From IMG/VR virus record IMGVR_UViG_2537561991_000013, positions 1 through 26,414 of that record: 26,414 nucleotides of DNA, one strand, 5' to 3'. Positions within the stretch are counted from its first letter, which is position 1. Every line of letters starts with the position of its first letter. Shown here piece by piece: positions 3,872 to 26,414 of this stretch. This DNA is from a virus. Taxonomy: Duplodnaviria > Heunggongvirae > Uroviricota > Caudoviricetes. The notes under the pieces were generated by a model. The model was not told the origin of the DNA and ran no database searches. It saw only the letters and a program-made list of their open reading frames with translations. A program made the translations under genes and the position numbers.

Positions 3872-3936
3872 TGATCTTACCCAGCAATAGTGGACACGCG
3901 GCTAAGTGAGTAAACTCTCAGTCAGAGGTGACTCAC

Positions 3937-6969: not shown

Positions 6970-6970
6970 T

Positions 6971-8719
6971 ATGACAGTGGCAAATTATAATTCTCTTGTC
7001 CAGAAAACTTTCTGCGAAAATGCAATTCGTTCCGTTGTCATGATTGATGACGATTTTCTGACGTATTCTGAATCAATCAGGGCGTTGAATAACGAAGTTG
7101 ATTTAGACTACAACAAAATTGACTCATCTAAACGAGCCGCTACTCTTGAGAGCTTTTTTCAATCTAAAAATATGATTTGTGATGTTGACAATGGTTCTGT
7201 TAATTTCGATGTGGATCGGATTAGAAAATCAGATCTTATTATTGTAGATTATCATCTTGATAATAATGCACCTGATAAAACACTTAAACTATTACAAGAT
7301 TTGAAAGACTCCGATCATTTAAATATGATTGTAATATATACTAGAGAGAATTTAGAAACGGTTTGGATGCAGATATCATCGACTCTCAAAGGTGCTCTGG
7401 ATATCAACAGCTTGATCATTGACTACGATAATGAAGATGTCCAAAGTTATTGGGAAGACGTTGTATTACCGAACTTAAATGATAATGGTAATAAAGCTCT
7501 CACAAGAGATGAAACAATAGCCTATATTAAAGACAGTAAGCCTTGTAGAAGAATTAAAAGATTAATACATGATGATGCTGTGTTGGAGGAACAAAAGGAT
7601 AAAAACTTCATTGCAAAAATGATTGCAGAATATGCTGTGTCTAGAAATGCAATTATTTCTAGCAACACATCTGGCAATGTCATTCGGGGTGATGAAAGCG
7701 GAGTAAAATGGATTCAATGTGGTAATATCTTTGTCTCCCTATTTCATAAGGTTCAAGATGATCATGAAAACGATGGAGATAGGATTTGGCAAACTCTCAA
7801 TGATTCTCTCATTGAATGGAAACCATCTTATTATCAGTTAATAAAATCTGAAATTCAGAATGCAATCGAAGCTGAGGCTTTATCTTTTGTAAATCATTTG
7901 GCTAACGATCATTACGGTCAAGCTGCGTGGTTAAATGAGATATTAAAATCAGACTCGCCTGATATTAGATGTAGAAATATTGACTTTGTATTTGGTAATT
8001 TATCAGAAGAGCTTTATCAAAGACTTAAAAATAATAATACGCTGGATGAATTTATCAAAAGTGTTTTTGATAGCTATTCAAATGAATACGCTAACAGCGG
8101 AGTTGCTGCATTGCTCCAATATTGCTCTTCAAAAATGGATCTGCCATCAAATAATGATACTTATCACGAAATGTATCATGCTTTAAATATGAATTTGTCT
8201 TCAAAGAATTTTGAAGATGGTCATATTTCTACTGGCACTATTTTCTTTGATACAGAGTCGAACAAATGGTATTTATGTGTATCTGCGGCATGTGATTTGG
8301 TTCCTACTCAGGGTAACGACCCTCACCATGTAAGATTAAGTCCGCACAGGCTCATTAAAGTTCTGGAGCTTTTTAACGCCAGTCAGAGTAAAGCATTGCC
8401 ATTTGCTGAACATTCGAAATATATATATGTAATGCATAAAAATCAAAGAAAATATCTCTCTATTTTCGAAGGGGATAAAACGCTTCCTGTTGTTGATTAT
8501 ATGGTGGTGTTGAATCATGGAACAACAGTTGATGGCGAAGAAAAAAATATTATTTCTGCCGTGTTTTTAAGTAATATGGATGGCAACGTGCAAAATGTTC
8601 CTGTCCGACTCAAACTTAAATCTCAACTGAGAACTGGTTATGCAGAAAGATATCAGGCTATAGCGTCTCAGTATAGCTCAAGGATTGGTGTGGATTATGT
8701 ATCAATGATGCTACCATAA
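6971..8719 (+). CDS. receiver (REC)-like N-terminal domain fused to an unassigned ~430-aa C-terminal domain
   Basis: ATG at 6971 is 1 nt after the kinase stop, with GGAGTGGAG as SD (the ORF track starts at 6953). N-terminus has REC-like beta1 VVMIDDD, beta3 DLIIVDYHLD, beta4 MIVIYT; the rest has no motif I can assign. AT-rich like the upstream gene. Confidence 0.55.
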   Translation: MTVANYNSLVQKTFCENAIRSVVMIDDDFLTYSESIRALNNEVDLDYNKIDSSKRAATLESFFQSKNMICDVDNGSVNFDVDRIRKSDLIIVDYHLDNNAPDKTLKLLQDLKDSDHLNMIVIYTRENLETVWMQISSTLKGALDINSLIIDYDNEDVQSYWEDVVLPNLNDNGNKALTRDETIAYIKDSKPCRRIKRLIHDDAVLEEQKDKNFIAKMIAEYAVSRNAIISSNTSGNVIRGDESGVKWIQCGNIFVSLFHKVQDDHENDGDRIWQTLNDSLIEWKPSYYQLIKSEIQNAIEAEALSFVNHLANDHYGQAAWLNEILKSDSPDIRCRNIDFVFGNLSEELYQRLKNNNTLDEFIKSVFDSYSNEYANSGVAALLQYCSSKMDLPSNNDTYHEMYHALNMNLSSKNFEDGHISTGTIFFDTESNKWYLCVSAACDLVPTQGNDPHHVRLSPHRLIKVLELFNASQSKALPFAEHSKYIYVMHKNQRKYLSIFEGDKTLPVVDYMVVLNHGTTVDGEEKNIISAVFLSNMDGNVQNVPVRLKLKSQLRTGYAERYQAIASQYSSRIGVDYVSMMLP

Positions 8720-8789
8720 TTATTATATTTTAGGCGTGGTGATTTTTTTCGCCATGCCTATTTTATATTTATCATCACAATGATGTTGT

Positions 8790-9101
8790 TTATTTTTGTT
8801 TAAGTCTTCTAAGCTTCATGCATTCTAATGAGAATAATAATAGAGTTGTGCTGTATATAAAGCCAGAGTTAGTTAATAACTTTAAATTTAATGCTTCAGG
8901 ATTTTCACTGAGAAAGTGAAAGGCATAAACTAAGTATACAGCTAAAGTAGCCGTTCCAATTGTTGGTCCAATATCGCCTTGATCATGAGGTTCAAGGTTT
9001 ACATTGAACTTGAAGATTAGCCATTCAAATCCCCAAGTAAAAAAAACAACTAATATCATGGCTGCGAATAATTTCGCGATGTTATCTGCTGATGGATTCA
9101 T
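8790..9101 (-). CDS. small hydrophobic protein (about 3 predicted TM segments), function unknown
   Basis: 103-aa ORF with three hydrophobic stretches (LFAAMILVVFFTWGF..., IGTATLAVYLVYAFHFL, FIYSTTLLLFSL); convergent with the kinase/receiver operon, AT-rich. Confidence 0.4.
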   Translation of the reverse strand: MNPSADNIAKLFAAMILVVFFTWGFEWLIFKFNVNLEPHDQGDIGPTIGTATLAVYLVYAFHFLSENPEALNLKLLTNSGFIYSTTLLLFSLECMKLRRLKQK

Positions 9102-9243
9102 CAGAACAGATTGTTTCTGAAAAAATTCACAAAGTGAGAGTCCGAAAAAAATAAAAAAAGTGGTCTGGAACTAAATTTTTCAAAAACTTTGAATAGGGTT
9201 TCCATTTTCTTTACCTTCAGGATTATATTAGCTATTCTGATAC

Positions 9244-10473
9244 TTAGGCTACCAGAGCATTTGATCTTTGAGCTTGAACGTAATCACTCCACCATTGCAT
9301 CAAACTCTGTCGCTCTATCAGATATTCTGCACGATTGTATGCTGCGATAATTTCATCTTTTTTCGAGTGGGCAAGCGCTGCCTCAAGAACTTCAGCTCTG
9401 AATTTACCAGACTCCTCTGCCGCTGTTCGTGCAATAGAACGCATACCGTGAGCTACAAGCTCGCCTCCGAACCCCATTCGGATGATAGCTGCGTTGGCTG
9501 TTTGTTCATGCATATGATTAAGAGGCGCTTTTATGCTGGGGAAAACCCATTCTCTATGCCCACTTATTGATTTCATTAATTCAAGGATGCGCAAAGCTTC
9601 TTTACTCAAAGGAACTTTGTGAAGCTTTTTCATTTTCATGAAATCAGCAGGAATGTTCCAAATGCTGTTGGTTGTATCAATATCAGACCACCTTGCGCGA
9701 ACGGCTTCACCCGGACGAACCCATGTCAACAATTGCCATTCAATTAGCATACGTGTTTCCAACCGGATTGACGCATTCGTCAAAGATTCCATAAACCTTG
9801 GCAATTCGCTTGGGGGAAGGGCAGGCATATTTTGCTTTTTTGGTTTACTGAATCTTTGACCAAGGTTGTCAGCCGGGTTGAACTCAATAAGTTCTTCAGT
9901 AGCTGCCCACCGGAAGATTTCATTCAGACGTGAAATGATACGGCGTAGAGTTTCCAATACGCCTCGTTGCTCAATAGGATCAAGGTGTTGTTTTAAGAGC
10001 TTAGGTCGGATCTCATTGATAGGGACATTACCCAGACCGGGAAAGACATTTCTCTCTAAGCTGCGCCAGATGTCTGCTGCATGGTCTTGTGAGATACCTG
10101 ATGTCTTTACCTTCTCATCTAACCATTTCCGCGCTACGGCTTGGAGAGTGTGCTCAGTAGCACTCTTTAATGCCTTCGCCTTATCGTTGTTATGGATTTG
10201 GGGATCAACACCATTTGCCAGAAAGGAGAGATATTCATCACGTAAGGCTCTGGCTCTTGCAAGGGTAAGGTGAGGATATGTCCCAAGGCTCATTTTGGTT
10301 CTTTTCTTGCTCACTGGTACTGCATACCTGAAATACCAATTTTTCTTGCCTCCTTTCGCCAAAGGAGCGATTCGTAGAATCAGACCATCACCGTCAAACA
10401 AGTTGATTTCTTTATCGGCTGGCTTGGTGCTTTTGATTTCAGTGTCAGTGAGCTTCTTAGCGATTTTTGCCAT
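9244..10473 (-). CDS. P4-type tyrosine integrase (CP4-57 IntA-like)
   Basis: ORF 9244..10515; likely start at ATG 10473 (MAKIAKKLTDTEIK...) with GAGGG RBS; C-terminal tyrosine-recombinase motifs (HGMRS...LAH...AAYNRAEY); sits 165 bp from the ssrA 3-prime fragment in the same orientation, as ssrA-intA does in K-12. Confidence 0.85.
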   Translation of the reverse strand: MAKIAKKLTDTEIKSTKPADKEINLFDGDGLILRIAPLAKGGKKNWYFRYAVPVSKKRTKMSLGTYPHLTLARARALRDEYLSFLANGVDPQIHNNDKAKALKSATEHTLQAVARKWLDEKVKTSGISQDHAADIWRSLERNVFPGLGNVPINEIRPKLLKQHLDPIEQRGVLETLRRIISRLNEIFRWAATEELIEFNPADNLGQRFSKPKKQNMPALPPSELPRFMESLTNASIRLETRMLIEWQLLTWVRPGEAVRARWSDIDTTNSIWNIPADFMKMKKLHKVPLSKEALRILELMKSISGHREWVFPSIKAPLNHMHEQTANAAIIRMGFGGELVAHGMRSIARTAAEESGKFRAEVLEAALAHSKKDEIIAAYNRAEYLIERQSLMQWWSDYVQAQRSNALVA

Positions 10474-10575
10474 TTTGGGACCCTCGGTTTTTGGACCCTT
10501 CTTAGTGGGTCCCATTCAGGGTGCCATAACTCGTAGTTCTCAGCAATTCTCACTGGACGACAATAGACGTAAAAA

Positions 10576-10608
10576 AGCCCGCAGAGCTTGTGCTGTGTGG
10601 GCTTAGTA
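10576..10608 (-). terminator. weak hairpin with U-tract between the att fragment and the integrase
   Basis: AGCCCGCA...TGTGGGCT inverted repeat (one mismatch) flanked by an A6 run on the plus strand (U-run on the minus strand). Confidence 0.3.
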
Positions 10609-10638
10609 GACTTCATTGAACTTCAAACAACTAAAAAG

Positions 10639-10674
10639 TGGTGGAGCTGGCGGGAGTTGAACCCGTATCCGAAA
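10639..10674 (-). other. partial copy of the 3-prime end of ssrA (tmRNA): att-type junction, not a functional tmRNA gene
   Basis: TGGTGGAGCTGGCGGGAGTTGAACCCGtaTCCGAAA is the reverse complement of the tmRNA 3-prime end (...GGACGCGGGTTCAACTCCCGCCAGCTCCACCA) with 2 mismatches; the match stops after ~36 nt and the rest of ssrA is absent. Confidence 0.75.
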
Positions 10675-10868
10675 AATTCTTAACCAATTGAATATTAATG
10701 ATTTTTCTAATTTAAAATACCTCACGTGCATTTTACGTGCATATTGTAGTACCTCTAACGTCCTGATTCTGTCCAACATTTTGAAGTGTTTAGGCGCCAC
10801 TGGGGCGGTGATTAGCGCTGTTTTGTGCTGTTCATAGCACTTCAAGACTATTCAATTCAGAGCAATCG

Positions 10869-10897
10869 TTGAAGAATTACCCGTAAGGTAATATCAT
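10869..10897 (+). promoter_or_regulatory. sigma-70-like promoter candidate (TTGAAG - 17 bp - TATCAT)
   Basis: -35 TTGAAG at 10869..10874 and -10 TATCAT at 10892..10897 with 17-bp spacing, upstream of the hairpin at 10932 and the ORF at 11009. Confidence 0.35.
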
Positions 10898-10931
10898 ACT
10901 ATTTAGGTAACTGCGGTTATCACCATCAAGG

Positions 10932-10967
10932 GCCACTGATGACGCTGTTATCATCAGTGGCTTTTTG
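10932..10967 (+). terminator. strong intrinsic-terminator-like hairpin (11-bp perfect stem GCCACTGATGA / TCATCAGTGGC, 8-nt loop, TTTTT tail)
   Basis: Perfect inverted repeat 10932..10942 / 10951..10961 followed by TTTTTG; about 40 nt upstream of the RBS of the 11009 ORF, so it may be an attenuator or the end of a ~60-nt RNA. Confidence 0.5.
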
Positions 10968-10970
10968 TAC

Positions 10971-10992
10971 CTTCACTGCACAGCCAGTGAAG
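10971..10992 (+). promoter_or_regulatory. 8-bp perfect inverted repeat (CTTCACTG-cacagc-CAGTGAAG) just upstream of the RBS of the 11009 ORF
   Basis: Inverted repeat ends 4 nt before GAGGAG (10997..11002); candidate operator or translational control hairpin. Confidence 0.35.
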
Positions 10993-11008
10993 TGTTGAGG
11001 AGACTAGC

Positions 11009-11350
11009 ATGAGAACAGTAGCGAGAAGATCGATACAGACGATTGAGCGTCGGACTCAACTCGTCAGTTCTTTTGTTGACTCAAACACAGCAAACGAGTT
11101 CTTCGTGAGAAGACTGAGTGATCGTGTCTCCCCGGCACGTCAGCTGTTTATTGTGACATTGAACAATGAGGTTCGTGACGGTGACGTGATCCCGTTCGCT
11201 GAGATCGCCATGAACAAAGAAAAATTGCGCTATGTTGTGAAGCCAGCAGATCAGTATCCTCAGTATGTAAGCAGTAATCTGCTGAAGAAAATTGAAGCGG
11301 CAATTGCTCTATACATGCAGAAGAACTACAGGGAAATTAACTACCATTAA
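11009..11350 (+). CDS. hypothetical protein (113 aa), first gene of a two-gene cassette at the int-proximal end of the prophage
   Basis: ORF with GAGGAG RBS at 6-nt spacing; no recognisable motif; followed 11 bp later by a second ORF. Confidence 0.5.
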   Translation: MRTVARRSIQTIERRTQLVSSFVDSNTANEFFVRRLSDRVSPARQLFIVTLNNEVRDGDVIPFAEIAMNKEKLRYVVKPADQYPQYVSSNLLKKIEAAIALYMQKNYREINYH

Positions 11351-11361
11351 AAGGTTGCTGA

Positions 11362-12129
11362 ATGGCTCCTGCGTTAATACCTTCATATAACAAGGACTTG
11401 AACATTACGCCATTTGGCGAAAAACGTCTTATTGAGTCATTCTATTTTTTCACTGCCGAGGCTGGCTTACTGAGGGCTGATGAGTACATTGTCAGTTCTG
11501 GTGAGTTTCAGTACTACTTGGATGTGTATCAACTGGGATGTTCCACCGACGACTTTTTTTTAGACTATGGCAGTGACCTTCTTGATTCGAAGGTTCCAAT
11601 GCAGGATCTGGTCAATACCCTCTTGGGTCTTGATATGGTAGACGATAACAAAACGATAAGAATAGGTCGTATACAGTTCAACGACTTTAATTTTATCGAA
11701 GAGAACGGTCAGATGATGACCGGAAAGCAAGTGAAAAGCGCTGTTATCGCACAGGATTTCCAATCAGCAGGTTTGGCGCGTGAGATCTATAAAATGCTTG
11801 CGCGAAAGCATGAGTTTCTCATCTGCGATAACATTCAAAGTATTGCCGGTGGTGCTCTTTGGGCTAGTAGCATCATTCGAATTGCCGAGGTACGGATCTA
11901 CAATTCACGCACGAAGAAATTTATGGACATACTTGGTCCAGGTGCGCGTGGCGTTTCAGGTACTTTGCCATGGAGTGCGAATGATCTGTCTGTAGATGAG
12001 ATTGTTCGCTGGGGTCGTGCGTATGATGATGAAAACTGTTGTCGTCACATTGTACATGTTATCTGTAAGGACCGACTCATTGACGATCAATTTCATGATT
12101 ATGTTTCGATAGGTGGCGCGACAGAATAA
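11362..12129 (+). CDS. hypothetical protein (255 aa), second gene of the cassette
   Basis: ORF closely following the 113-aa gene; no recognisable motif; ends at a bidirectional terminator shared with the integrase. Confidence 0.5.
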   Translation: MAPALIPSYNKDLNITPFGEKRLIESFYFFTAEAGLLRADEYIVSSGEFQYYLDVYQLGCSTDDFFLDYGSDLLDSKVPMQDLVNTLLGLDMVDDNKTIRIGRIQFNDFNFIEENGQMMTGKQVKSAVIAQDFQSAGLAREIYKMLARKHEFLICDNIQSIAGGALWASSIIRIAEVRIYNSRTKKFMDILGPGARGVSGTLPWSANDLSVDEIVRWGRAYDDENCCRHIVHVICKDRLIDDQFHDYVSIGGATE

Positions 12130-12141
12130 CCATCAAAAAGA

Positions 12142-12164
12142 CCCGGCATTTGCCGGGTTTTTTC
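12142..12164. terminator. bidirectional intrinsic terminator (CCCGGC-ATTT-GCCGGG flanked by A-run and T-run)
   Basis: 6-bp GC stem with AAAAAG upstream and TTTTTTC downstream; sits between the convergent 11362..12129 gene and the integrase. Confidence 0.6.
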
Positions 12165-12170
12165 TTCAAA

Positions 12171-13349
12171 TCACTTCTTCATTCCAGATTCCATTGCGGT
12201 TTTCCCGTCGTATTCAGCCAGGTATTTACCGTAATTGCGGAACAGCATTTCCGGCCCCTTATGCCCCATCTGCCCGGCAAGCCAGAAAAGGTTTACACCC
12301 TGGCTAATGTGTCTGGTGGCGAATGTGTGGCGCGTCTGGTACGGGTTACGGTAGCGCACACCAGCTTTTTTCAGGGTCGGCACCCATGCTTTTTTACGGA
12401 TAGCGTCGGCGTTCGTCCAGGGATCTCCCGTTTTCGGATCGCTGAATATGAACTCACTTTTCATAAAGGTGTATTGCTTCTGCGCCTGCAGGGCCGCCAG
12501 CGCCTCACTGTTCAGCTCCACCTTACGGGTACCGGCTTTTGTCTTGGTGCCTTTAAGTACCCCTACGACACTGGCCGCCTGTATGTGCGCTGTATTACCT
12601 ATAAAGTCGATATCGGTCCAACGTAATGCGCATAGCTCAGAGCTGCGTAGCCCTGTATTGAAGGCGAAGCGGAACAGATTCTGCCATTCCTGATACTTGC
12701 AGTGCTGATATATGGCACTGGTTTCCGCAGGCGCAAACGGATCAACTTCGTAATCGTCGGCGTTCGGTTTACTGTCGACCACGTGATACCGGCTGGCGCT
12801 GACAAGAGTTACCGGGTTAATAGTCAACAGGCCATCAGTTACAGCCTCATCAATGGCGCTGCGCAGAAATGACAGGTTATTCCTGATTGTTTTCAGCTTA
12901 GTTTTTCGGCTGGCTATCCAATTTTTTAGTACCGCAGGCGTCAATTCTGTTACATGTAGTTTATGTAGTTCTGATAGTGCTGATAGACATTTTTCGTAAC
13001 CGCCAATGGTTGACGGCGACAGATTGCGGTTCATGCAAATTTTCAGGTATTCATCAAGATAGGACTTAATATTTTTGGTTTTCTTTACTACACCGAATAA
13101 CTCCAGTTTTTTGGAACTGGGGAAATATTTCGCATATTCAAACGTTCCGCTGGCGATCTGATTTTGTATCTCCCCTAGCAGGCGCTCAGCATATTTAATA
13201 CCACGTGTATTTGCCTCAAGCCGAGACAGGGGCTCCCTGCAAAGAACCCCTTTATATGTGAAAGTGATAACTAGTGTTGAAGCAGTTTTATGCTTACGAA
13301 TAGTTACTCCTCTTGGCAGAGATAATAATCCTTGTTCTTTCTTGCCCAT
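12171..13349 (-). CDS. lambdoid-phage tyrosine integrase (not lambda Int)
   Basis: 392-aa ORF from ATG 13349; C-terminal catalytic motifs RHTFATRH...GHKGPEMLFRNYGKY; an overlapping excisionase-like gene lies upstream. Confidence 0.85.
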   Translation of the reverse strand: MGKKEQGLLSLPRGVTIRKHKTASTLVITFTYKGVLCREPLSRLEANTRGIKYAERLLGEIQNQIASGTFEYAKYFPSSKKLELFGVVKKTKNIKSYLDEYLKICMNRNLSPSTIGGYEKCLSALSELHKLHVTELTPAVLKNWIASRKTKLKTIRNNLSFLRSAIDEAVTDGLLTINPVTLVSASRYHVVDSKPNADDYEVDPFAPAETSAIYQHCKYQEWQNLFRFAFNTGLRSSELCALRWTDIDFIGNTAHIQAASVVGVLKGTKTKAGTRKVELNSEALAALQAQKQYTFMKSEFIFSDPKTGDPWTNADAIRKKAWVPTLKKAGVRYRNPYQTRHTFATRHISQGVNLFWLAGQMGHKGPEMLFRNYGKYLAEYDGKTAMESGMKK

Positions 13350-13513
13350 TTTGAAACCTCTATTAAGTCGACCCAGCGTTCTTTAACTCCGTCGACTTTT
13401 AATACATGAACCCCTTCTTTCCATATTCCTCTTTGTATCCGTTTGTTAACGGCATCAACCGTTTCTCCCGCGTCGCGGCAGTAGGTTGATATAGGCACGC
13501 AATCCAGCCCCAT
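13304..13513 (-). CDS. excisionase-like small DNA-binding protein
   Basis: 69-aa ORF overlapping the integrase start by 46 bp (typical xis-int arrangement); basic, with W/K-rich C-terminus. Confidence 0.5.
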   Translation of the reverse strand: MGLDCVPISTYCRDAGETVDAVNKRIQRGIWKEGVHVLKVDGVKERWVDLIEVSKWARKNKDYYLCQEE

Positions 13514-13671
13514 ACATCACCTCACATAACACTCAGCCCACGGCAGTGGCACCACACGTCAAACATTCGCTTCACAACTTCACGACAGTAGAAGCCGTCA
13601 ACATCTCGCGTCAGGTTATAGCGATTGCCGTAACGCTGGTGGACCCATTGTTCAAATGCTTTATTCATTCT

Positions 13672-13950
13672 TTACTTCCTTTTTATGGCTCGTAATTTTT
13701 TCAGGTGCTTTTCCTGCTCAGTGTCCGCGAGAATTTTGCGGTACTCCTGGTGGTCAATATGTTCGAACAGGCAGTTTAACTCACCAATGCGTACCCGCCC
13801 GGATCGTCCGTCCATCCGTCGAAAGAACACTGAGTGCTCAGTGATGCGAGTAATCACCACGGGGTATCCGGCTCTGTCCGTGTATATCTGACCGCGTTGA
13901 ATCAAAGCGAACATGTGGTTATCCCCATCGACAAATTGAGAACACAACAA
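13672..13950 (-). CDS. hypothetical small phage protein
   Basis: 92-aa ORF in the leftward early operon; no motif assigned; start codon uncertain. Confidence 0.4.
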   Translation of the reverse strand: MLCSQFVDGDNHMFALIQRGQIYTDRAGYPVVITRITEHSVFFRRMDGRSGRVRIGELNCLFEHIDHQEYRKILADTEQEKHLKKLRAIKRK

Positions 13951-14037
13951 ACGCTACTGCGAATACCACCCCCAGAGTTACGATTGCATCAGGCCAGCTC
14001 ATTGATTCACCTCCTGCGGCGTCCTGGTATTCGATTT

Positions 14038-14606
14038 TCATTCCGGATGCTCCTGAGCCACATTGAAATCGCCATGATCACGACAAGGCATCACAACAAA
14101 TTCAGGATTGCCATACATTGAGTTGATGATGGAATCAAACTGAATTCTGACCGCTTGCCCGTCACCGGAGGAACGTAACTGGACGGGAATAAATTTACGC
14201 TCACGACCAAACATCTTCTCTGGATAACTCAGGTAACCCGCCTGGATCACCGGGTGTGTACAGAGGTCAAATTTTTTCGGAATGATGCGTTCCAAATCCG
14301 GAAAACAACCGTCCACCAATTTAATGCCGGTAATGGACAGCCGGCGCTGAAACTGGTCGCGATGAACAGGATCGGCTCTTTACTAAAAATCAGCTCTGTC
14401 GTTTCGGCTTTGGCCGGGACGCCACCTTCGAACTGGACAATGATGTTTTTCTTCGTCCGGATGCCGTGAGTCATGCGCAGTGCTACGAAACCATTGGTTG
14501 CCTCAATATGTTTTGGCGTGATGTGAAGACCGTTCAGGTAATAACGAACGTCGTTTTTAGCAGCGCACACCAGAGCGGCGCGAATAAGTTTTGACTGGAT
14601 GATCAT
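14038..14606 (-). pseudogene. DNA polymerase III beta-clamp (DnaN)-like gene split into two overlapping frames (frameshift or authentic disruption)
   Basis: ORF 14247..14606 has KNDVRYYLNGLHI...EATNGFVALRM (compare DnaN QDVRYYLNGMLFE...VATDGHRLAV); ORF 14038..14319 in another frame has VDGCFPDLERIIPKK (compare DnaN VDGRFPDYRRVLPKN). Together they are about half the length of cellular DnaN. Confidence 0.5.
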
Positions 14607-15352
14607 GCTTTATCCTCCCATCCGATTACCTGAAAAAGCCCCATCTTCGGGTGATACCAGCGTGTGCCGCGTGGTTCAGCCTCTGACATCATTTGGTGGA
14701 ACGCCGCCATAAATGTCTCAAGCTCGACGACAGCCCTGCGAGACAACAGACCGTCCGGAGTCATAAATTCGTGCGTGTCGGTAGGGATGTGGTAGGCGTT
14801 GACCAGATTCCGACACTTGGCGTCACTCATTCCGCTTTTGGCTACCACCTGGCGGTAACCGACATATCCGGTGCGCATTGTGCCGCGTTTGATGTTCTCC
14901 ACAGCTTTGGTGACCGTTTCGATCTTCTCTTCAACATGACTCAGGCGCTTCTGCTGGCGAACGGCATCGGCGGCCATTGCAGCGATCATCTCCATTTCCG
15001 TCAGCGGCGCGTGAGTTCGGAAATAGCTGTTAACCAGTTCGCGCTGAACCTGCCATGCAAGAGCATCGTTAAAAGGCTTCGTCAACATCAGGTAACCAGA
15101 CTCGAAAAGAATGATCCCTTTGGCAGTTCGCGCGGCAAAGGCATCAGAAAGTGACTCCGTACGTATTACGTCCGCAGTCATTTCAAGAAAATCCACCCCT
15201 TCGATAAAGTGAGAACGGTTGCGGTTAAACGCAGCACGGGCGGTACCTTCCGGGCGCTGGTGGACGTCATCAATTATTGCAAATGTCACAACACGCTGAC
15301 CGCGATATTCGATTACCGGAAACTGTTTGTTGTTGATGGTTACAATATTCAT
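14603..15352 (-). CDS. phage ORF6N-domain protein (antirepressor-like)
   Basis: Start at ATG 15352 (MNIVTINNKQF...) with GGAGAT RBS; N-terminal segment VVTFAIIDDVHQRPEGTARAAFNRNRSHFIEGVDFLEMT resembles the ORF6N signature (RN...F.EG.DF..LT); the domain assignment is from memory. Confidence 0.5.
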   Translation of the reverse strand: MNIVTINNKQFPVIEYRGQRVVTFAIIDDVHQRPEGTARAAFNRNRSHFIEGVDFLEMTADVIRTESLSDAFAARTAKGIILFESGYLMLTKPFNDALAWQVQRELVNSYFRTHAPLTEMEMIAAMAADAVRQQKRLSHVEEKIETVTKAVENIKRGTMRTGYVGYRQVVAKSGMSDAKCRNLVNAYHIPTDTHEFMTPDGLLSRRAVVELETFMAAFHQMMSEAEPRGTRWYHPKMGLFQVIGWEDKA

Positions 15353-15395
15353 TTTTATCTCCAGACAGCCCGGCGTGTAATACCGGGCATATGTA

Positions 15396-16223
15396 TTACT
15401 TAACCTGAATAAATGGTGTGTTGGCACCGCTGGTCATGTATTGCGGCAGTGTACCGTTCCACTTGTTGATGGCTTCCAGCTCCATAACACCGGGGTTCTG
15501 GCGCAGAGCTTCACCGCGTAAACGAATAGCATCGGCTTCGGCCTGGGCTTTTGTGCGAATCGCATCTGCCTGTCCGGCAGCTTCCGCGCGCAACATGTTG
15601 GCTTCCGCTTCGCGCTGTTTTACTTCCTGCTCGCGTTGCAGGGTTTTCTGGTTCGCCGTGACTTTGGCATTAATGCTGTCGATAACAGTAGGTGGGTACT
15701 CCGGCTTACCCACATATGAGAGGCTCATTACCTGAATACCGATGGGCGTCATTTCTTCCTGAATGTCTTTAAGAGCTGCATCCAGCAGCTCAGACTTGCC
15801 GCCGTCGATAAATTTGTCGGTGGTCATTTTGCTGGCCAGTCGGTTGAGTGCGTCGGCTATCTTCTGGCGCAGGTCGGTGTCGGTAATGTCGTCCACGCCT
15901 TTGCGGTAGGTCTGAAAGACTGTGGTAACTTTGGATGGATCAACTTTGTAGGCCACGCCGATGTGATAGCCGATGGTTGTACCGTCACTCATCTGGAAAC
16001 TGAATGGATCATCGTAGGTCTTCATCTGCTTAAAGGTCGGGAAGATGTAAACCTCAGTGTTCCATCCCGTCCAGTAGCGCCCAACACCGACCACTTCACC
16101 GACGCCTTTATCGTCGCCCAGTTTGTTTACTTTGATGCCCACATTACCAGGCTCAACGCGATCGCAACCGACAAGGCCAATGGTCGGCAGAACAAGGGCT
16201 AAAGCAAAAAGTAATTTTTTCAT
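15396..16223 (-). CDS. SPFH/band-7 (prohibitin-like) lipoprotein
   Basis: Signal peptide with lipobox (MKKLLFALALVLPTIGLVGC), SPFH-like core and an Ala/Glu-rich coiled-coil C-terminus (AEANMLRAEAAGQADAIRTKAQAEADAIRL). Confidence 0.6.
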   Translation of the reverse strand: MKKLLFALALVLPTIGLVGCDRVEPGNVGIKVNKLGDDKGVGEVVGVGRYWTGWNTEVYIFPTFKQMKTYDDPFSFQMSDGTTIGYHIGVAYKVDPSKVTTVFQTYRKGVDDITDTDLRQKIADALNRLASKMTTDKFIDGGKSELLDAALKDIQEEMTPIGIQVMSLSYVGKPEYPPTVIDSINAKVTANQKTLQREQEVKQREAEANMLRAEAAGQADAIRTKAQAEADAIRLRGEALRQNPGVMELEAINKWNGTLPQYMTSGANTPFIQVK

Positions 16224-16408
16224 CTTTTATCCTTAGAAAAAGAAAGACCCTTATAAATGGCATAAATGCAGGGCGGGGTCAGACACGCCAGAGCAAAGCC
16301 AGAAATCACTGCTACCGTATCCTTCATTGATATGAGGGCCGGAACGATTAATCCGTAAATACATGTGATAATTGCCAGTGATATAACTATTCTGAAATAA
16401 ATGTTCAT
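16220..16408 (-). CDS. small membrane protein (2 predicted TM), translationally coupled to the SPFH gene
   Basis: 62-aa hydrophobic ORF whose stop overlaps the SPFH start by 4 nt. Confidence 0.45.
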   Translation of the reverse strand: MNIYFRIVISLAIITCIYGLIVPALISMKDTVAVISGFALACLTPPCIYAIYKGLSFSKDKR

Positions 16409-16468
16409 GGTCCTCCTGATGTATTCGGCTTGCCTTATTTAATTGCGTCATGGTTAATTTCGTTTACG

Positions 16469-16861
16469 TCAGAATGGTTTTGTTGCCATCAGTTCGTAAT
16501 ATCCGGCGCTCCATGTGTCATATTTTCTGAACCATTTTTCTGTATACTGTTTCCTGGCGATGAGTCTGCGCAGTCGTCTGATTGTTCGCTGGTGTGCGCG
16601 GGTATACTCTGTGGTTGATTCTCCACGTTTCCATATCTCATTCCTGTTGAAGATAAAACGCTTGTCAGGATAGCGTTGTCGGAATCCTGAACGTTCAAAA
16701 GCGCGGGTGGTCATAAAGAATGCCAGGTAACGAATTGCCGTTTTTCGGGTGAGGCATTTTTTTGTTCTTCCGTGGCGTGTTACAAAAAATAACGGGCCGA
16801 CGGGTGTATCATGTTTCTGTAATGCCTGGTCAATGGTGCTGGCGGTGCGGTTGTCGATCAT
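16469..16861 (-). CDS. hypothetical basic phage protein
   Basis: 130-aa ORF, Arg/Lys-rich; no motif assigned. Confidence 0.4.
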   Translation of the reverse strand: MIDNRTASTIDQALQKHDTPVGPLFFVTRHGRTKKCLTRKTAIRYLAFFMTTRAFERSGFRQRYPDKRFIFNRNEIWKRGESTTEYTRAHQRTIRRLRRLIARKQYTEKWFRKYDTWSAGYYELMATKPF

Positions 16862-17076
16862 TTCTTTATTTCTCCCGAATAACGTTCATGACTCATTACT
16901 TCCCAGTTCCGGCCGTCGTCTTTCGATAACAGCCGCCAGCGACGGTTAACCTTCAGACTGAGATATCCGGTGCGCTGTATCCGATGCGGAAATATCCGTC
17001 GGCATCGGTACAACAACAGGACCTGCAATGCCTGCCGGTGGATCCGCTCAGGAATGCGTGTTGCTGTTAATGCCAC
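16858..17076 (-). CDS. hypothetical small protein
   Basis: 72-aa ORF overlapping the downstream start by 4 nt; overlaps 17048..17263 in another frame, so one of the two may be spurious. Confidence 0.3.
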   Translation of the reverse strand: MALTATRIPERIHRQALQVLLLYRCRRIFPHRIQRTGYLSLKVNRRWRLLSKDDGRNWEVMSHERYSGEIKK

Positions 17077-17263
17077 CGGTTTCCTCCTGAGCAGGTGCTG
17101 TTATCTGATACCCCGCTCTTTCTGCCAGCCGTATGAATGTATCCATGCTGGCAATCAGCTCGCCATCGCGGACTTTGCAGACACCTGTGACTTGGCCATT
17201 TTCAATTGTCATAACGATCTGCACTTTTTCGTGCACAACAGATACAGGGGATAAATTAGCCAT
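17048..17263 (-). CDS. hypothetical small protein
   Basis: 71-aa ORF, start/stop coupled with 17263..17622. Confidence 0.35.
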   Translation of the reverse strand: MANLSPVSVVHEKVQIVMTIENGQVTGVCKVRDGELIASMDTFIRLAERAGYQITAPAQEETGGINSNTHS

Positions 17264-17622
17264 CAGTTAATTCCTCCGCTGATATATTTTTCTTTCGCGT
17301 AATCAATAATCTCTTGAAAAAGGTTGTCTATAATTAACTTTCCGGTTTCAGTCAGGTATTCAGTATGTTGATTAATCCCGATAGCATTCTGGTATGCAGT
17401 GTGGATTTCGGTTTCACCCTCCACCCGGCCCAATTCACCACGGGTAATACCTTCGAAGCGTAACAGCAACTGGTTTATAAACTGTTCAGTTATTTCTATG
17501 GTCGTAATGTTCCCATCAGGAAGGTCAACAATAAGCAGATTACCACCTGTTTTACGTTTTATTCGATGGAGTGCCGCAACAGCTATACGGCGACGATATG
17601 TATTAATGGGTTCATGTGTCAT
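17263..17622 (-). CDS. hypothetical phage protein
   Basis: 119-aa ORF in the leftward early operon. Confidence 0.45.
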   Translation of the reverse strand: MTHEPINTYRRRIAVAALHRIKRKTGGNLLIVDLPDGNITTIEITEQFINQLLLRFEGITRGELGRVEGETEIHTAYQNAIGINQHTEYLTETGKLIIDNLFQEIIDYAKEKYISGGIN

Positions 17623-17806
17623 TTGTTATTTCCCGTATGCTTTCCTGAGAAACAGTATTGCAACTGACCAGTATCCTGCATTAGCCATTAATAATGCGGT
17701 TTTATAAGCACTTCTGTTTTTCATGCATCACCACCATTTTCAGGTTGTGGAAATTCCCGACCAGAGACCGTTATGTTTTTATGGGTGATTGTTTATTGAG
17801 TTTTCT

Positions 17807-17998
17807 TTATTCGTTGCGCAGTGTGTCGATATACGCGTAAGCCATTTCACAGGTTTTATTCATGGAGCGAATGAGGCAACATAAATAATCGTCTGTCTCT
17901 CCTGAGTCGGGCGAATTCTTAAATATAAATTCAAGCATTGATGTATTCTCTTTTATTTGTGCTGCCACTTCCTCAAGAATATTTAATGGAGTTTTCAT
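17807..17998 (-). CDS. hypothetical small protein
   Basis: 63-aa ORF, stop/start overlapped with 17995..18219. Confidence 0.35.
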   Translation of the reverse strand: MKTPLNILEEVAAQIKENTSMLEFIFKNSPDSGETDDYLCCLIRSMNKTCEMAYAYIDTLRNE

Positions 17999-18219
17999 GT
18001 TCTTTGCTCCTTAAATGCATCGCATGCGCTTCTGGCGTATTGTTGTGCCAGTAAAAAGATATCATCCGAAAGTTCATCACATTCTTCATCACCGGAAGCC
18101 GAAATGATTAACCCCGCTTCAAGCAGTACGGCAATGTGATGAAAAGTTGTCTCCGGTTCGTTGGTAAGGCCTTTGAACATTTTCATCTTATGCTTCCTCC
18201 TGATTTTGTTTATAAGCAT
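17995..18219 (-). CDS. hypothetical small protein
   Basis: 74-aa ORF between the HTH gene and the 63-aa ORF. Confidence 0.35.
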   Translation of the reverse strand: MLINKIRRKHKMKMFKGLTNEPETTFHHIAVLLEAGLIISASGDEECDELSDDIFLLAQQYARSACDAFKEQRT

Positions 18220-18607
18220 CAGTCAATAACAACATTGGATCACAGCCAAGAACATTAGCCAGAGGGATAAGCATGCTGATGGTTGGTTCGTACTCTCCGC
18301 TCTCCCACTGGATGATAATTTCTTCATCGAGATCGAGCAGCCTAGCGAGTTCGGCGGTTGTTAAGCCGCAGGTTTCGCGTTGGGTGCGAATCCGATTCTG
18401 GGAATTAATAGCTAAATTTTGTTTGCATAAACGTGACGCGGTGAGGCTATATTTTTGAGTTACAGCCAGGATGGAGCTGGCAAGTTCAATTAACTCAGGG
18501 TTATTGCTGCTATACAGTAGTGCACCAGTCCCTACTAAGAGCTGAATATTCTCAAGAGCATCGTGCTGATTTGTTGGTAATCCCATATACGATGACATTT
18601 TTCTCAT
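18188..18607 (-). CDS. HTH (XRE-family) DNA-binding protein, first gene of the leftward early operon
   Basis: C-terminal half has an XRE-type HTH (GLTTAELARLLDLDEEIIIQWESGEYEPTISMLIPLANVLGCDP); CGATAAA-type half-sites lie in its upstream region (18640..18690). Confidence 0.5.
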   Translation of the reverse strand: MRKMSSYMGLPTNQHDALENIQLLVGTGALLYSSNNPELIELASSILAVTQKYSLTASRLCKQNLAINSQNRIRTQRETCGLTTAELARLLDLDEEIIIQWESGEYEPTISMLIPLANVLGCDPMLLLTDAYKQNQEEA

Positions 18608-18696
18608 CCTCTATAATTGCTTTGGTGAGTTCGATACCTATGTCAAGATAATAGGTTTACCGATTTCACCTGTCAATCGGTTTATCGATTTTTTCC

Positions 18697-18723
18697 CAAA
18701 AAAAAGCCCACTTAAGAGTGGGC
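18697..18723 (-). terminator. intrinsic terminator of the repressor gene (GCCCACT-TAAG-AGTGGGC with U-run on the minus strand)
   Basis: 7-bp stem preceded on the plus strand by A9, i.e. a U-tract after the hairpin on the minus strand; 19 bp downstream of the cI-like stop. Confidence 0.6.
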
Positions 18724-18741
18724 GGGTTAAATGATTTTTGC

Positions 18742-19434
18742 TTATGCAAAACGGTGTAGTGTCATAGGCCAACTGACAATTACTTTTCCGTCAATGTGAA
18801 GTTGTTCGAAGTCTTCCGGTTCGATAGCCCAATCCTTGTAAGCTGGGTTGTCAGATATCACCGTTAGAGTATCTTTGATTTTTTGAAGTCTTTTGATGTG
18901 CGATGTTCCAGAGTATGTAAAGGCGTATATACCATCACCATTAAATGTGCGAACTGATACATCTACAAATACCAAGTCTTCAGGGTCTATTGTGCCTTTC
19001 ATACTGTCGCCGTGGGCGTTTATTGCTTTGATTGCTGATGCTGGTCTGCCGCCAAAAACTCTTGATGCGTATCCTGGTTCTATCGCTATAGATCTGACAA
19101 TATCAGGAAAATCAGAGTTATAACTACCAGGTCCGCAACTATATCTGATGTCTAAAACATCCACGACATACGAATCAGTAACCCAATCTTCAGAAATGTT
19201 ACGTATTTGGTGTGAGTCTGCAGAGGTCACGATTTCCATTGGGCCAACACCCGATGCGAGCCATTCCGGGTTAACGCCCAAAACTTTTGCTATTTCGACT
19301 GTTTTTCTGGAACCGTTGGCTTTGTTAAGTAGTTGATTAACACTGGACTGAGCCATACCCACTTCTTTGGCCAGCCTACCTTGCGTAAATTTTGCGTTGC
19401 GCATAGCTAAATCAAGTCGTTCTGAAAATGTCAT
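18742..19434 (-). CDS. CI-like prophage repressor (N-terminal XRE HTH, C-terminal S24 LexA-like peptidase domain)
   Basis: 230-aa ORF; N-terminal HTH (FTQGRLAKEVGMAQSSVNQLL), C-terminal GDSM serine motif and downstream lysine; divergent from a Cro-like gene. Confidence 0.8.
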   Translation of the reverse strand: MTFSERLDLAMRNAKFTQGRLAKEVGMAQSSVNQLLNKANGSRKTVEIAKVLGVNPEWLASGVGPMEIVTSADSHQIRNISEDWVTDSYVVDVLDIRYSCGPGSYNSDFPDIVRSIAIEPGYASRVFGGRPASAIKAINAHGDSMKGTIDPEDLVFVDVSVRTFNGDGIYAFTYSGTSHIKRLQKIKDTLTVISDNPAYKDWAIEPEDFEQLHIDGKVIVSWPMTLHRFA

Positions 19435-19466
19435 TGCGATTTTCCTCCCCTCTCTATCTTGGCTAG

Positions 19467-19486
19467 TTTATCGGCTTTCCGATAAA
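19467..19486. promoter_or_regulatory. operator-like palindrome TTTATCGG-CTTT-CCGATAAA in the cI/cro intergenic region
   Basis: Perfect 8-bp inverted repeat with a 4-bp spacer between the divergent repressor and Cro-like genes; related CGATAAA half-sites recur at 18640..18690. Confidence 0.5.
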
Positions 19487-19553
19487 TATTCTATGTTTAA
19501 CGTTGAATATCGCTTTTCCTGTTGTTATTATGCGTTCAATAGGAGATGCGATT

Positions 19554-19841
19554 ATGAAACATAAAGCCATAGAGAAAGCTATTGAGATTCTTGGAAGTCA
19601 GCAAGCCTTAGCCAAGCGATGCGGAAAGGCCCAGTCAACAGTCTGCGATTGGTTGAACTGCAAGAACAAGATTTCACCAGAATTTGTGCCGTTATTGGTT
19701 GCAGCTGTCGACGGAAAGATCCAAGCGTATGAATTTCGGCCAGACCTACCAGAGCTTTTTCCACATCCAAGCTTAGCGCGCACGGGGGAGGTGAAGGGCT
19801 TGTATGTCCCAGAATTACGTTCAGACAGAGATGCCATCTAG
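19554..19841 (+). CDS. Cro/YdaS-like small HTH regulator
   Basis: ATG at 19554 with AGGAG RBS at 8-nt spacing (ORF track starts at 19503); MKHKAIEKAIEILGSQQALAKRCGKAQSTVCDWLN... is an HTH; divergent from cI. Confidence 0.6.
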   Translation: MKHKAIEKAIEILGSQQALAKRCGKAQSTVCDWLNCKNKISPEFVPLLVAAVDGKIQAYEFRPDLPELFPHPSLARTGEVKGLYVPELRSDRDAI

Positions 19842-20112
19842 GTACTGCCAGGCAGACGAAGAGTGGATTCAGCAGCAGTTACAGGGGCTGCCTCCGTCAC
19901 TGAGACGGAAGGTTGCCCTGAAATATGCGGAGGTATACGAAATCACTTTTGACGCTGAGCCTGTTTCATTCCGCAAGGAGAACAGAGCAAGGCACGAAGC
20001 AAACACAAGGCTCCGCCTGTTTGTAAGAAATCAGGGCAGAGCTTTACAGGGGTATACAGCCGAACCTCCCCTGGCTGGATCGCAATCGCGCTCCTCACTG
20101 TTTCGGGTTTAA
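19804..20112 (+). CDS. hypothetical protein in the cII position; possibly a remnant
   Basis: 102-aa ORF overlapping the Cro-like gene; no motif assigned; followed by ~780 bp with no credible ORF. Confidence 0.3.
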   Translation: MSQNYVQTEMPSRYCQADEEWIQQQLQGLPPSLRRKVALKYAEVYEITFDAEPVSFRKENRARHEANTRLRLFVRNQGRALQGYTAEPPLAGSQSRSSLFRV

Positions 20113-20891
20113 AGGTACCCGAACAGAAGCAGGCTTAAAGGTGCCTGTTCAGGTTGGCAACCAACTGACCCAACTCCTCATGTGTACTAGGGAAGTAGTA
20201 CGTTTTTATGGGGAAGAGGGTAAGGGGGGTAAGGGGGGATTGGGTGTTGGGGCAGGAATAGGGTCTTTTCCAACAGGAGAGATCCATTGGTTAAGTAGAT
20301 CACTGTCTTAAGGGCGCAATTTAAAAAAACGCCCGTATCAGCAAGGTAGTACAAAGCGCTCAGGCGCTGAGAAACGAAAAGGGTTCTTCCTGGAAGAGTG
20401 ATTGAAGAGGTGTTCAGAGGTAAATGCACTGAATGTTATTCACGAACATATGAAGTGAATGCCACGCATGAAGAATTCACCGTTGAGTGTGTGATGAATA
20501 CTGATAAATGCCGAATGGTATCCGCTGAATTACAGCCAGTGTGTTGAGCGACCTTATTATCCATGCGCGGTATTGTCGCCGTATTCCTGCATTAACAGAG
20601 ACCGCAGCCCGACAGGGAGACTCCTCTGCGAGAGTGTGCGGGGATAATCAAAAACGATACACACCGGGGTTTACCGCGTAAACGGAGCGCGGCGTTGTCC
20701 CCTCATGGTCGCTGGTCCGGTGCGATGGTGGAAGAAACCGGACGATGTGTTACCTCGCAAACTCTGTTATGTCATGTGTCTGATTTGTGATTTAAGTCGG
20801 ATAATTGTCATTGCCATTAAGCAGAGGATTGATGACCGACAGGGCTGCATTGTTAGAATAAGACTTATTCTTATCTATGCCGGGAATAAAA

Positions 20892-21218
20892 ATGAAAAGA
20901 AATCTTCCGTTAATTATTTTGTTGTCTTCTTTGGTTATGGGCTGTACGCAACATAAAACAGATATGCCTCGACAGTTGGTTAAGGCATTACCACAATATC
21001 CGGCCTATGCCGCGGCAAATTATATAAAGGGACGGGTTGATGTGAAGTTTGATATTGGTGCTGATGGTACTGTCACCCGAATTGAGTTTATCCGTTCAGA
21101 GCCGCACCATCTGTTTGATGAGCAGGTTGTAAAGGCGATGGCAAAATGGCGATTTGAGAAGGACAAGCCGCGTAAAGGCGTGAAGAAAACATTTATCTTT
21201 AGTCCTTCAGCACCCTGA
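20892..21218 (+). CDS. lipoprotein with a TonB C-terminal-like domain
   Basis: Start at ATG 20892 (MKRNLPLIILLSSLVMGC...) giving a lipoprotein signal and lipobox, Thr at +2; mature part PQYPAYAAANYIKGRVDVKFDIGADGTVTRIEFIRSEP...AMAKWRF parallels TonB CTD ([38 protein letters not shown]...AMRRWRY). Confidence 0.55.
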   Translation: MKRNLPLIILLSSLVMGCTQHKTDMPRQLVKALPQYPAYAAANYIKGRVDVKFDIGADGTVTRIEFIRSEPHHLFDEQVVKAMAKWRFEKDKPRKGVKKTFIFSPSAP

Positions 21219-21689
21219 TTATTTTATCAGAAGTTAATTATCACTCTGTTGCTATTCAGTACATCCCTGCAGGGTAAAGTCTTGTTTCGCCGGATATGAA
21301 GATGAAATATTGTTAGAAGACAGTAGCTACCGGTTCCTGTAACCGAACGTTCATTTCTCGTTATTTTTCATGCTGGCCGGGCGCAGGTGCTTTGCATCTG
21401 TTGCCAGCCTTCTCCTGCAGGCTTCAATAACCCATGCCGAAAAATTACCCGATCCCTTACGTTCAAGGGCAATATGGATTTGATTAATCATCTGGTTTGG
21501 GAAGCTTTATTTTTTGATGACATTGTGTTTTTCCGTGTTCAGTGCTGCTGATTTGTATTGTCTTAAGATGTCTTTACGTTAAGTTGACACAGATCAATTA
21601 ATGCATGACTTGGACAAAATTGATTATTTGTCGTGGTTTTATGGTGTACGTGGGATGTGTGATGGTATTTATATAAATGATAATTATTA

Positions 21690-21917
21690 TCATTTGTTGG
21701 GTCCTTTCCGGCGATCCGGCAGGCTACGGGGCGGCGACCTCGCGGGTTTTCGCTATTTATGAAAATTTTCCGGTTTAAGGCGTTTCCGTTCTTCTTCGTC
21801 GTAACTTAATGTTTTTATTTAAAATACCCCCTGAAAAGAAAGGAAACGACAGGTGCTGAAAACGAACTTTTGGGCCTTTGTCGTTTCCTTTCTCTGTTTT
21901 TGGCCGTGGAATGAACA
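21690..21917 (+). other. cos region (cosN cohesive-end site at 21728..21739, GGGCGGCGACCT, with flanking cosQ/cosB)
   Basis: Sequence across 21695..21917 matches the lambda right-end/left-end junction as I recall it (...GGTCCTTTCCGGCGATCC...ACG | GGGCGGCGACCTCGCGGGTTTTCGCTATTTATGAAAATTTTCCGG...) with a few substitutions, immediately upstream of nu1. Confidence 0.8.
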
Positions 21918-22437
21918 ATGGAAGTCAACAAAAAGCAGCTGGCTGACATTTTCGGTGCGAGTATCCGTACCATTCAGAACTGGCAGGAACAGGGAATGCC
22001 CGTTCTGCGAGGCGGTGGCAAGGGTAATGAGGTGCTTTATGACTCTGCCGCCGTCATAAAATGGTATGCCGAAAGGGATGCTGAAATTGAGAACGAAAAG
22101 CTGCGCCGGGAGGTTGAAGAACTGCGGCAGGCCAGCGAGGCAGATCTCCAGCCAGGAACTATTGAGTACGAACGCCATCGACTTACGCGTGCGCAGGCCG
22201 ACGCACAGGAACTGAAGAATGCCAGAGACTCCGCTGAAGTGGTGGAAACCGCATTCTGTACTTTCGTGTTGTCGCGGATCGCAGGTGAAATTGCCAGTAT
22301 TCTCGACGGGCTCCCCCTGTCGGTGCAGCGGCGTTTTCCGGAACTGGAAAACCGACATGTTGATTTCCTGAAACGGGATATCATCAAAGCCATGAACAAA
22401 GCAGCCGCGCTGGATGAACTGATACCGGGGTTGCTGA

Positions 22438-22463
<26 letters not shown>
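21918..22463 (+). CDS. nu1: terminase small subunit (lambda Nu1)
   Basis: 181-aa ORF MEVNKKQLADIFGASIRTIQNWQEQGMPVLRGGGKGNEVLYD... recognised as lambda gpNu1; position right after cos. Confidence 0.9.
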
Positions 22464-26144
<3,681 letters not shown>

Positions 26145-26164
<20 letters not shown>

Positions 26165-26414
26165 TCTCCCGCATATTGCCAGCATGGCCTTTAATGAGCC
26201 GCTGATGCTTGAACCCGCCTATGCGCGGGTTTTCTTTTGTGCGCTTGCAGGCCAGCTTGGGATCAGCCGCCTGACGGATGCGGTGTCCGGCGACAGCCTG
26301 ACTGCCCAGGAGGCACTCGCGACGCTGGCATTATCCGGTGATGATGACGGACCACGACAGGCCCGCAGTTATCAGGTCATGAACGGCATCGCCGTGCTGC
26401 CGGTGTCCGGCACG
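26145..26414 (+). CDS. C: head protease/scaffold (lambda gpC), 5-prime part only; continues past the window end
   Basis: GTG start at 26145 with AGGAGGAG RBS; translation (M)TAELRNLPHIASMAFNEPLMLEPAYARVFF... recognised as the lambda gpC N-terminus. Confidence 0.85.

Follow-up and report, generated by a model that had tools for sequence, protein, structure and literature searches.

A lambdoid prophage of Escherichia coli probably made defective by one internal deletion of its replication, Q, and lysis modules

The cryptic prophages of Escherichia coli K-12 (Rac, DLP12, Qin, e14, and CP4-57) are lambdoid or integrase-bearing remnants without lytic functions, and they are old and heavily eroded. 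In the O157 strain Sakai, defective lambdoid prophages (among Sp1–Sp18) can still undergo excision, packaging, and even transfer as a result of interactions between prophages (Asadulghani et al. 2009, PMC2669165). All 11 lambdoid prophages of Sakai keep Q and a full set of lysis genes, and all but Sp3 keep replication genes (PMC2669165). Here we describe the lambdoid prophage that occupies the right-hand part of a 26,414-bp stretch of DNA (IMG/VR record IMGVR_UViG_2537561991_000013, hereafter the window), which is identical to the entire contig ADUO01000161.1 of a draft E. coli assembly (GCA_000188775.2). Like those of Sakai (PMC2669165), it is a lambdoid prophage of pathogenic E. coli in which essential modules are deleted or disrupted while the integrase, immunity, and packaging genes are kept. 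Unlike them, it appears to have lost replication, Q, and lysis all in one event, which is a more disabling lesion. It also differs from the cryptic prophages of K-12, being one deletion away from a complete phage and otherwise pristine, and it shares its ssrA attachment site with CP4-57.

We consider it very probable (about 0.9) that this prophage was made defective by one clean internal deletion of 8,876 bp, which removed the replication, Q, and lysis modules. The alignment that carries this reading is with a near-identical prophage at the same chromosomal site in the E. coli record UGBS01000001.1 (GCA_900449155.1), found through exact-protein look-ups and represented here by two overlapping and contiguous stretches, L007 and L020. 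Positions 9804–20403 of the window correspond to 1–10600 of L007 with one mismatch in 10,600 bp (99.991% identity), and positions 20399–26414 to 9508–15523 of L020 with two mismatches in 6,016 bp (99.967%), one of which is the microhomology position described below. Against three mismatches in 16.6 kb of flanking sequence, positions 632–9507 of L020, 8,876 bp in all, are absent from the window at 20403|20404. Outside the junction, the only base differences from the sister prophage are at 13617, where the change gives D18N in a 48-amino-acid (aa) open reading frame (ORF) and is a lineage marker common to five other draft contigs, and at 21696, 35 bp upstream of cosN. An internal deletion of these same modules had been proposed in a preliminary description of the window, and the base-level alignment to the intact prophage, with its 8,876 extra bp, bears that proposal out.

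In a three-way alignment at the junction, the left parent reads ...GAGTGATT|TTTCAG, the right parent ...CTGCTT|GAAGAGG, and the window GAGTGATTGAAGAGG. The joined ends share only TT (TGATT and TGCTT agree in four of five bases), which points to illegitimate recombination at the level of microhomology and not to homologous exchange between phage modules. On the left, the break is 291 bp past the end of a 102-aa ORF, the helicase gene starting 123 bp further on in the intact relative; on the right, it interrupts codon 26 of a 74-aa ORF located just after Rz. The same position was reached by a megablast search of window positions 12000–26414 against complete E. coli genomes, in which one prophage family matched up to 20403 and another from 20563; a finer search shifted the start of the right-hand match to 20402, and no filler DNA is present at the junction.

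The genes of the missing segment are given at the end of Table 1, and PHROG matches confirmed the assignments of the helicase, the primase, Q, and the spanin. Both the replication module, downstream of cro, and Q with the holin/endolysin/spanin cassette, upstream of cos, are absent from the window and present within the 8,876 bp of the relative; the late promoter and leader of Q were presumably lost with them. Replication or lysis genes elsewhere in the same prophage, which the preliminary description had regarded as the finding that would speak against it, were looked for by Pfam and PHROG matches, and none was found in the visible left arm, including the early-left operon. To the right, the window ends inside the head gene C, which is also the end of the contig, and the tail region lies beyond it. 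In the sister prophage, C is followed in lambda order by D, E, FI, FII, and the tail genes Z, U, and V, and there is no reason to expect the lost functions further to the right.

Table 1. Features of the prophage in the window, and gene content of the segment that is missing relative to the intact sister prophage
Feature	Position	Strand	Evidence or remarks
Presumed attachment core, left prophage boundary	10639..10665	-	27-bp exact match to K-12 NC_000913 2755929-2755955
Two ORFs (cargo) of 113 and 255 aa, located between attachment core and int	11009..12129	+	PHROG 2594, PHROG 3307 (both unknown function)
Tyrosine integrase, 392 aa	12171..13349	-	Pfam Arm-DNA-bind_2, Phage_integrase
Excisionase, 69 aa	13304..13513	-	PHROG 2917 'excisionase', E=2.5e-41
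Early-left operon	13522..18607	-	Small ORFs, split PHROG 3007 gene, ORF6N anti-repressor-like, SPFH/Band_7, ParE-like, 139-aa helix-turn-helix (HTH) regulator
CI-type repressor, 230 aa, HTH and S24 self-cleavage domain	18742..19434	-	Pfam Peptidase_S24 E=7.5e-17, HTH
Cro-like regulator, 95 aa	19554..19841	+	Pfam YdaS_toxin/HTH_3; PHROG 35 'transcriptional repressor'
Conserved phage ORF of unknown function, 102 aa	19804..20112	+	PHROG 852, E=3.7e-41
Retained part of the intergenic leader preceding the helicase gene in intact relatives	20113..20403	+	100% identical to L020 341-631
3' remnant (49 codons) of 74-aa ORF, start lost	20398..20547	+	PHROG 2571; intact ORF is L020 9432-9656
Deletion junction	20403..20404	.	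Three-way alignment; 8,876 bp of intact relative missing
TonB_C-domain lipoprotein, 108 aa (113 aa from upstream ATG at 20877)	20892..21218	+	Pfam TonB_C E=2.7e-15; lipobox-like LVMGC motif
DUF3950 small ORF, 46 aa	21351..21491	-	Pfam DUF3950 E=8e-19; also called in L016, L019, L020
Lambda cosN, 12-base cohesive-end sequence GGGCGGCGACCT	21731..21742	+	Exact, read from sequence
Terminase small subunit Nu1	21918..22463	+	Pfam Phage_Nu1 E=2.5e-100
Terminase large subunit A	22438..24363	+	PHROG 15; Pfam GpA_ATPase, GpA_nuclease (source contig and relatives)
Head-tail adaptor W	24360..24566	+	PHROG 75
Portal protein B	24563..26164	+	PHROG 21
Start of head protease/scaffold gene C, cut by contig end	26145..26414	+	Transferred from L020 15254-16573 (S49 peptidase)
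Missing segment, replication			DEAD/ResIII (DEAD-box) helicase 552 aa; zinc-ribbon/Toprim primase 322 aa; 285-aa protein
Missing segment, control and other			Q-family antiterminator 131 aa; 65-aa ORF; SASA (NanS-type) esterase 617 aa
Missing segment, lysis			Class II holin 71 aa; DUF1327 114 aa; lysozyme (endolysin) 177 aa; Rz 164 aa
Missing segment, right end			First 25 codons of the 74-aa ORF

In the window, 1,889 bp separate the end of the Cro-like gene (19841) from cosN (21731), and 2,076 bp separate it from the start of Nu1. In lambda, the corresponding distance from the end of cro (38241) to cos (48502) is 10.26 kb. The preliminary description had given about 2 kb for the former, which agrees with the measurement, as do the positions of its features, and about 9 kb for the latter, which is close enough. 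Its account of what lies in the interval needs more correction. The 102-aa ORF, which it had called doubtful, is a conserved phage gene with a highly significant PHROG match (Table 1) and an identical protein in 1,616 blocks of the assembly collection; it is located between cro and the helicase gene in 10 of the 10 places listed, and in relatives it is the last gene ahead of the replication module. The roughly 780 bp said to be without credible ORFs are indeed 764 bp (20113–20876) in which no convincing ORF was found, but they contain both the deletion junction and the 49-codon remnant of the 74-aa ORF, which in intact relatives comes after Rz. Two ORFs that cross or abut the junction were looked up as called genes, and neither is on record; there is likewise no recorded gene whose product is the 49-aa remnant. 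Finally, the single lipoprotein gene is present, whereas the DUF3950 gene on the opposite strand had been overlooked.

The retained leader contains G-rich GGTAAGGGGGG repeats, with tandem units at positions 20190–20260, and the predicted RNA fold around it (326 nt) is more stable than that of shuffled controls (z = -3.5). The leader might serve the helicase-primase module as an origin or as a regulatory element. The draft contigs of two related strains stop within this G-rich leader, at 20201 and 20236. When repeats and folds were analyzed across positions 19842–21917, only this structured leader and the known cos-proximal hairpin were interpretable, the latter being an inverted repeat at 21837–21893 that, like cosB, lies on the 3' side of cosN. 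A consensus scan found no terminator-like site on the plus strand between cro and Nu1.

The TonB_C lipoprotein gene is in the same position in the lambda-like prophages L015–L024; placed between lysis cassette and cos, it is a gene of the moron type. It was considered as a homologue of Bor and rejected as such, as it has a TonB_C domain; it lies on the plus strand. The protein also matches PHROG 1267, which is labeled 'Rz-like spanin', and in intact relatives its gene is downstream of an Rz gene that is separate and complete. The label has probably been carried over in annotation and does not denote a function.

The distribution of the junction was also evaluated. Among 5,426 complete E. coli genomes, not one spans it, and an exact 40-mer across it had no match in genome_contigs, no match in metagenome_contigs, and one in viral_contigs, the record IMGVR_UViG_2681813321_000026 (L025). 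In enteropathogenic E. coli (EPEC) E110019, both flanks are found within one prophage, 9.46 kb apart, and about 20 other relatives that reach window position 20403 (L001, L005–L014, L017, L020, L034, L035, L037–L039, and L045) all continue into the helicase region. The other contigs with the D18N variant stop between positions 15846 and 20236, before the junction, and are uninformative on the deletion.

L025 matches the window from 13538 to 25875, across the junction, with five base differences in 12,338. Two of these are in unique sequence, the window having a private change at one and L025 at the other, and three of the five cluster at 13558–13649, next to the point at which the two records part. 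As the same junction occurs in two records that are not identical, a one-off misassembly is unlikely. To the left of 13538, L025 (12413–14009, compared with 12171–13537 in the window) has a different int-xis module, of the Rac intR/xisR type, and its integrase has 28% protein identity with that of the window. L025 also contains an N at position 74 and a 73-base overlap between its contig end and an internal segment, which suggest a short-read graph with two related prophages. The different integration module either was truly exchanged once the deletion had occurred or results from an assembly path that crosses a shared repeat, and it is not relied on here. A second pattern search gave no extension of the IMG/VR contig past L025.

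In its general organization, the prophage is lambdoid: int and xis are at one end, next to the attachment site, a CI-type repressor is divergent from a Cro-type regulator, and a lambda-type cos is followed by Nu1, A, W, B, and C in that order. The likeness to lambda (NC_001416) extends to an identical cosN and to the cos-Nu1-A-W-B region, with about 99% DNA identity (98.9–99.0% over window positions 21533–26414). Unlike lambda, the window has no equivalent of cII/O/P, nin, Q, S, R, or Rz in the 1.9-kb interval between cro and cos, and it has the plus-strand TonB_C lipoprotein gene where lambda has bor. The undeleted relative itself carries a helicase-primase replication module in place of O/P. 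The left boundary has a copy of the 3' end of ssrA, and the attachment site is therefore not that of lambda (attB-lambda).

The prophage of UGBS01000001.1 shares with that of the window the site, the genes, and 99.97–99.99% identity in both arms, and that of E110019 shares the left arm and both breakpoint flanks. In contrast to the window, both keep the replication/Q/lysis segment of 8.9–9.5 kb, and E110019 has a packaging module of the HK97 type instead of the lambda type. Compared with the undeleted sister, none of the retained genes and sites (Int, Xis, early-left operon, S24 repressor, Cro, 102-aa ORF, TonB_C, DUF3950, cos, Nu1, A, W, B, and the start of C) is any less intact. The statement of the preliminary description that the int-xis, immunity, and packaging/head genes look intact is thus well founded, with cosN exact and the region from cos to B about 99% identical to lambda.

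The left boundary was placed at the 27-bp sequence that, in K-12, is directly upstream of CP4-57/intA, and which we take to be the 3' end of ssrA, the gene for transfer-messenger RNA (tmRNA). Similarity to the prophages of E110019 and L014, which are in other chromosomal contexts, begins exactly at window position 10639. Because the matches to relatives start where the 27-bp copy is, this copy was taken as the left attachment core of the lambdoid prophage; on sequence grounds, it is presumably the attachment-site core of a prophage that reaches the contig end. An Rfam search of the window gave no match, and the tmRNA gene was not found in it. The core sits between the integrase of a neighboring island and the prophage, and two integrative elements appear to be in tandem at the ssrA site. 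The integrase of the prophage is at the end far from the expected position of the complete ssrA gene.

With the exception of the D18N change, the early-left operon is the same as that of the intact relative. Its PHROG 3007 gene carries the label RusA-like and encodes 189 aa in L005-type prophages; here it is broken into two overlapping ORFs (93 and 119 aa; 14038–14606, minus strand). The sister prophage without the deletion has the same split, and the RefSeq annotation of E110019 gives the gene as frameshifted. The split therefore predates the deletion. The two cargo ORFs accompany the integrase in E110019, L007, and L014, and the Cro-like gene is annotated as 'transcriptional regulator' by RefSeq in E110019.

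If the deletion is as reconstructed, one illegitimate recombination event would have taken out the replication, late-control, and lysis modules together. Upon SOS induction, derepression and excision may still occur. There would, however, be no amplification without the replication proteins, no activation of the late genes without Q, and no lysis without holin, endolysin, and spanin, so that the prophage would form no plaques unaided. The element would persist as a chromosomal passenger that still gives immunity and carries accessory genes, and its revival would require a co-resident lambdoid phage, either as a partner in recombination or as a helper.

Some points weigh against this interpretation. 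As the window is a whole draft contig, it shows neither the tail region and attR nor any other prophage of the strain. The defective phenotype, non-inducible or helper-dependent, is one that we infer from the biology of lambda. With no terminator-like site found, some transcription from the early rightward promoter may reach the head genes independently of Q. Co-resident lambdoid prophages can rescue defective ones, as in Sakai (PMC2669165), and a 'defective' element may therefore still be mobile. The record L025, which has the same junction, could derive from a related isolate or even from the same strain and need not be independent. A bolder possibility follows from what the deletion brings together, as it joins the SOS-inducible early rightward operon (cro and the 102-aa ORF) to the TonB_C gene, cos, and the terminase/head operon. 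This arrangement might allow Q-free expression and yield a non-lytic cos element mobilizable by a helper, with real spread together with another integrase, but we regard such an outcome as very unlikely.

The junction could also be a misjoin of the draft assembly in a prophage-rich genome, the real prophage being intact. The window is, after all, a complete draft contig whose end falls within a repeated phage gene. In such genomes, the DNA right of the junction is present in more than one copy (a single genome has both L020 and L021), and draft contigs of relatives are interrupted in the G-rich stretch around 20200–20236. Errors of this kind, however, arise within shared repeats, and here the two sides have only 2 to 5 bases in common; moreover, the identical junction is present in a record that was assembled differently and has base differences of its own to the left and right of it. 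We therefore judge a misjoin extremely unlikely. The near-absence of shared sequence is also relevant to the proposal that the window is a chimera of two prophages in one chromosome, produced by an inversion or by a deletion between prophages, with the missing modules in a reciprocal product elsewhere. Genomes of enterohemorrhagic E. coli and EPEC do hold many lambdoid prophages with common modules, and L025 joins the same right-hand part to a different int-xis module. The junction nevertheless lacks the homology normally used in exchange between prophages, and both arms match the single prophage of UGBS01000001.1 at 99.97–99.99%, while other lambda-like right arms reach 98.1–98.3%, which leaves this origin exceedingly improbable.

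It may instead be supposed that the compact layout of integration, immunity, cos, and head genes was selected and spreads with a helper lambdoid phage, the element having evolved into a helper-dependent satellite or into a domesticated producer of particles. In favor of this, it has retained cos, int/xis, an inducible repressor, and a terminase and head genes of its own; nothing resembling a terminator was found between the early rightward operon and the head genes; and the junction is found in two records, one of them with a different int module. This module, however, is perhaps the result of an assembly path through a repeat, given the 73-base overlap and the N of L025. In addition, a single deletion and three base substitutions are all that set the element apart from a fully equipped prophage, so it must be very recent, and its junction is absent from the 5,426 complete E. 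coli genomes, genome_contigs, and metagenome_contigs. Nor does the element have a replication initiator of its own, as no primase, helicase, or Rep gene was detected by Pfam or PHROG at positions 10639–26414. No genes for capsid size or for hijacking of a helper, and none redirecting helper assembly or packaging, were recognized in the visible prophage, the tail region being past the contig end. An evolved satellite is thus highly improbable, and a recent deletion in an otherwise complete lambdoid prophage remains the reading that we favor.

The left part of the window is chromosomal, with lhgO, glaH, and an alpha-amylase gene cut by IS3, followed by a low-GC island with a P4-type integrase. 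The alpha-amylase-family gene is ygaQ-like (2786–5099) and is truncated by the IS3 element at 3928–5099, an arrangement also found in O103:H2 PV16-126 and many other strains. The island, which adjoins the IS3 copy, comprises positions 5251–10515 and has a GC content of 32–35%. Its two large genes encode proteins of 572 aa (Pfam HEF_HK and HATPase_c) and 588 aa (Pfam Response_reg_2), and they are followed by a 103-aa ORF and then by the P4-type integrase, which adjoins the ssrA-derived attachment core. It looks like a two-component-like conflict or defense cassette on an ssrA island. In a search for defense systems, no model in PADLOC v2 matched the tested genes of the left arm or of the island.

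A lambdoid prophage with an internal deletion is a well-known phenomenon, and the present prophage is a very clean but ordinary case of decay. Pathogenic E. coli very commonly carry defective lambdoid prophages, of which this one is mainly a further, well-documented example. Its modest value lies in the base-by-base reconstruction of the event, something seldom achieved; an intact sister copy is at hand, and the case offers a snapshot of the first step in prophage domestication. For annotation purposes, the region should be called a defective prophage and not an active one. For the strain, this means that the prophage would probably be unable to kill its host on induction, while still providing immunity and accessory genes.

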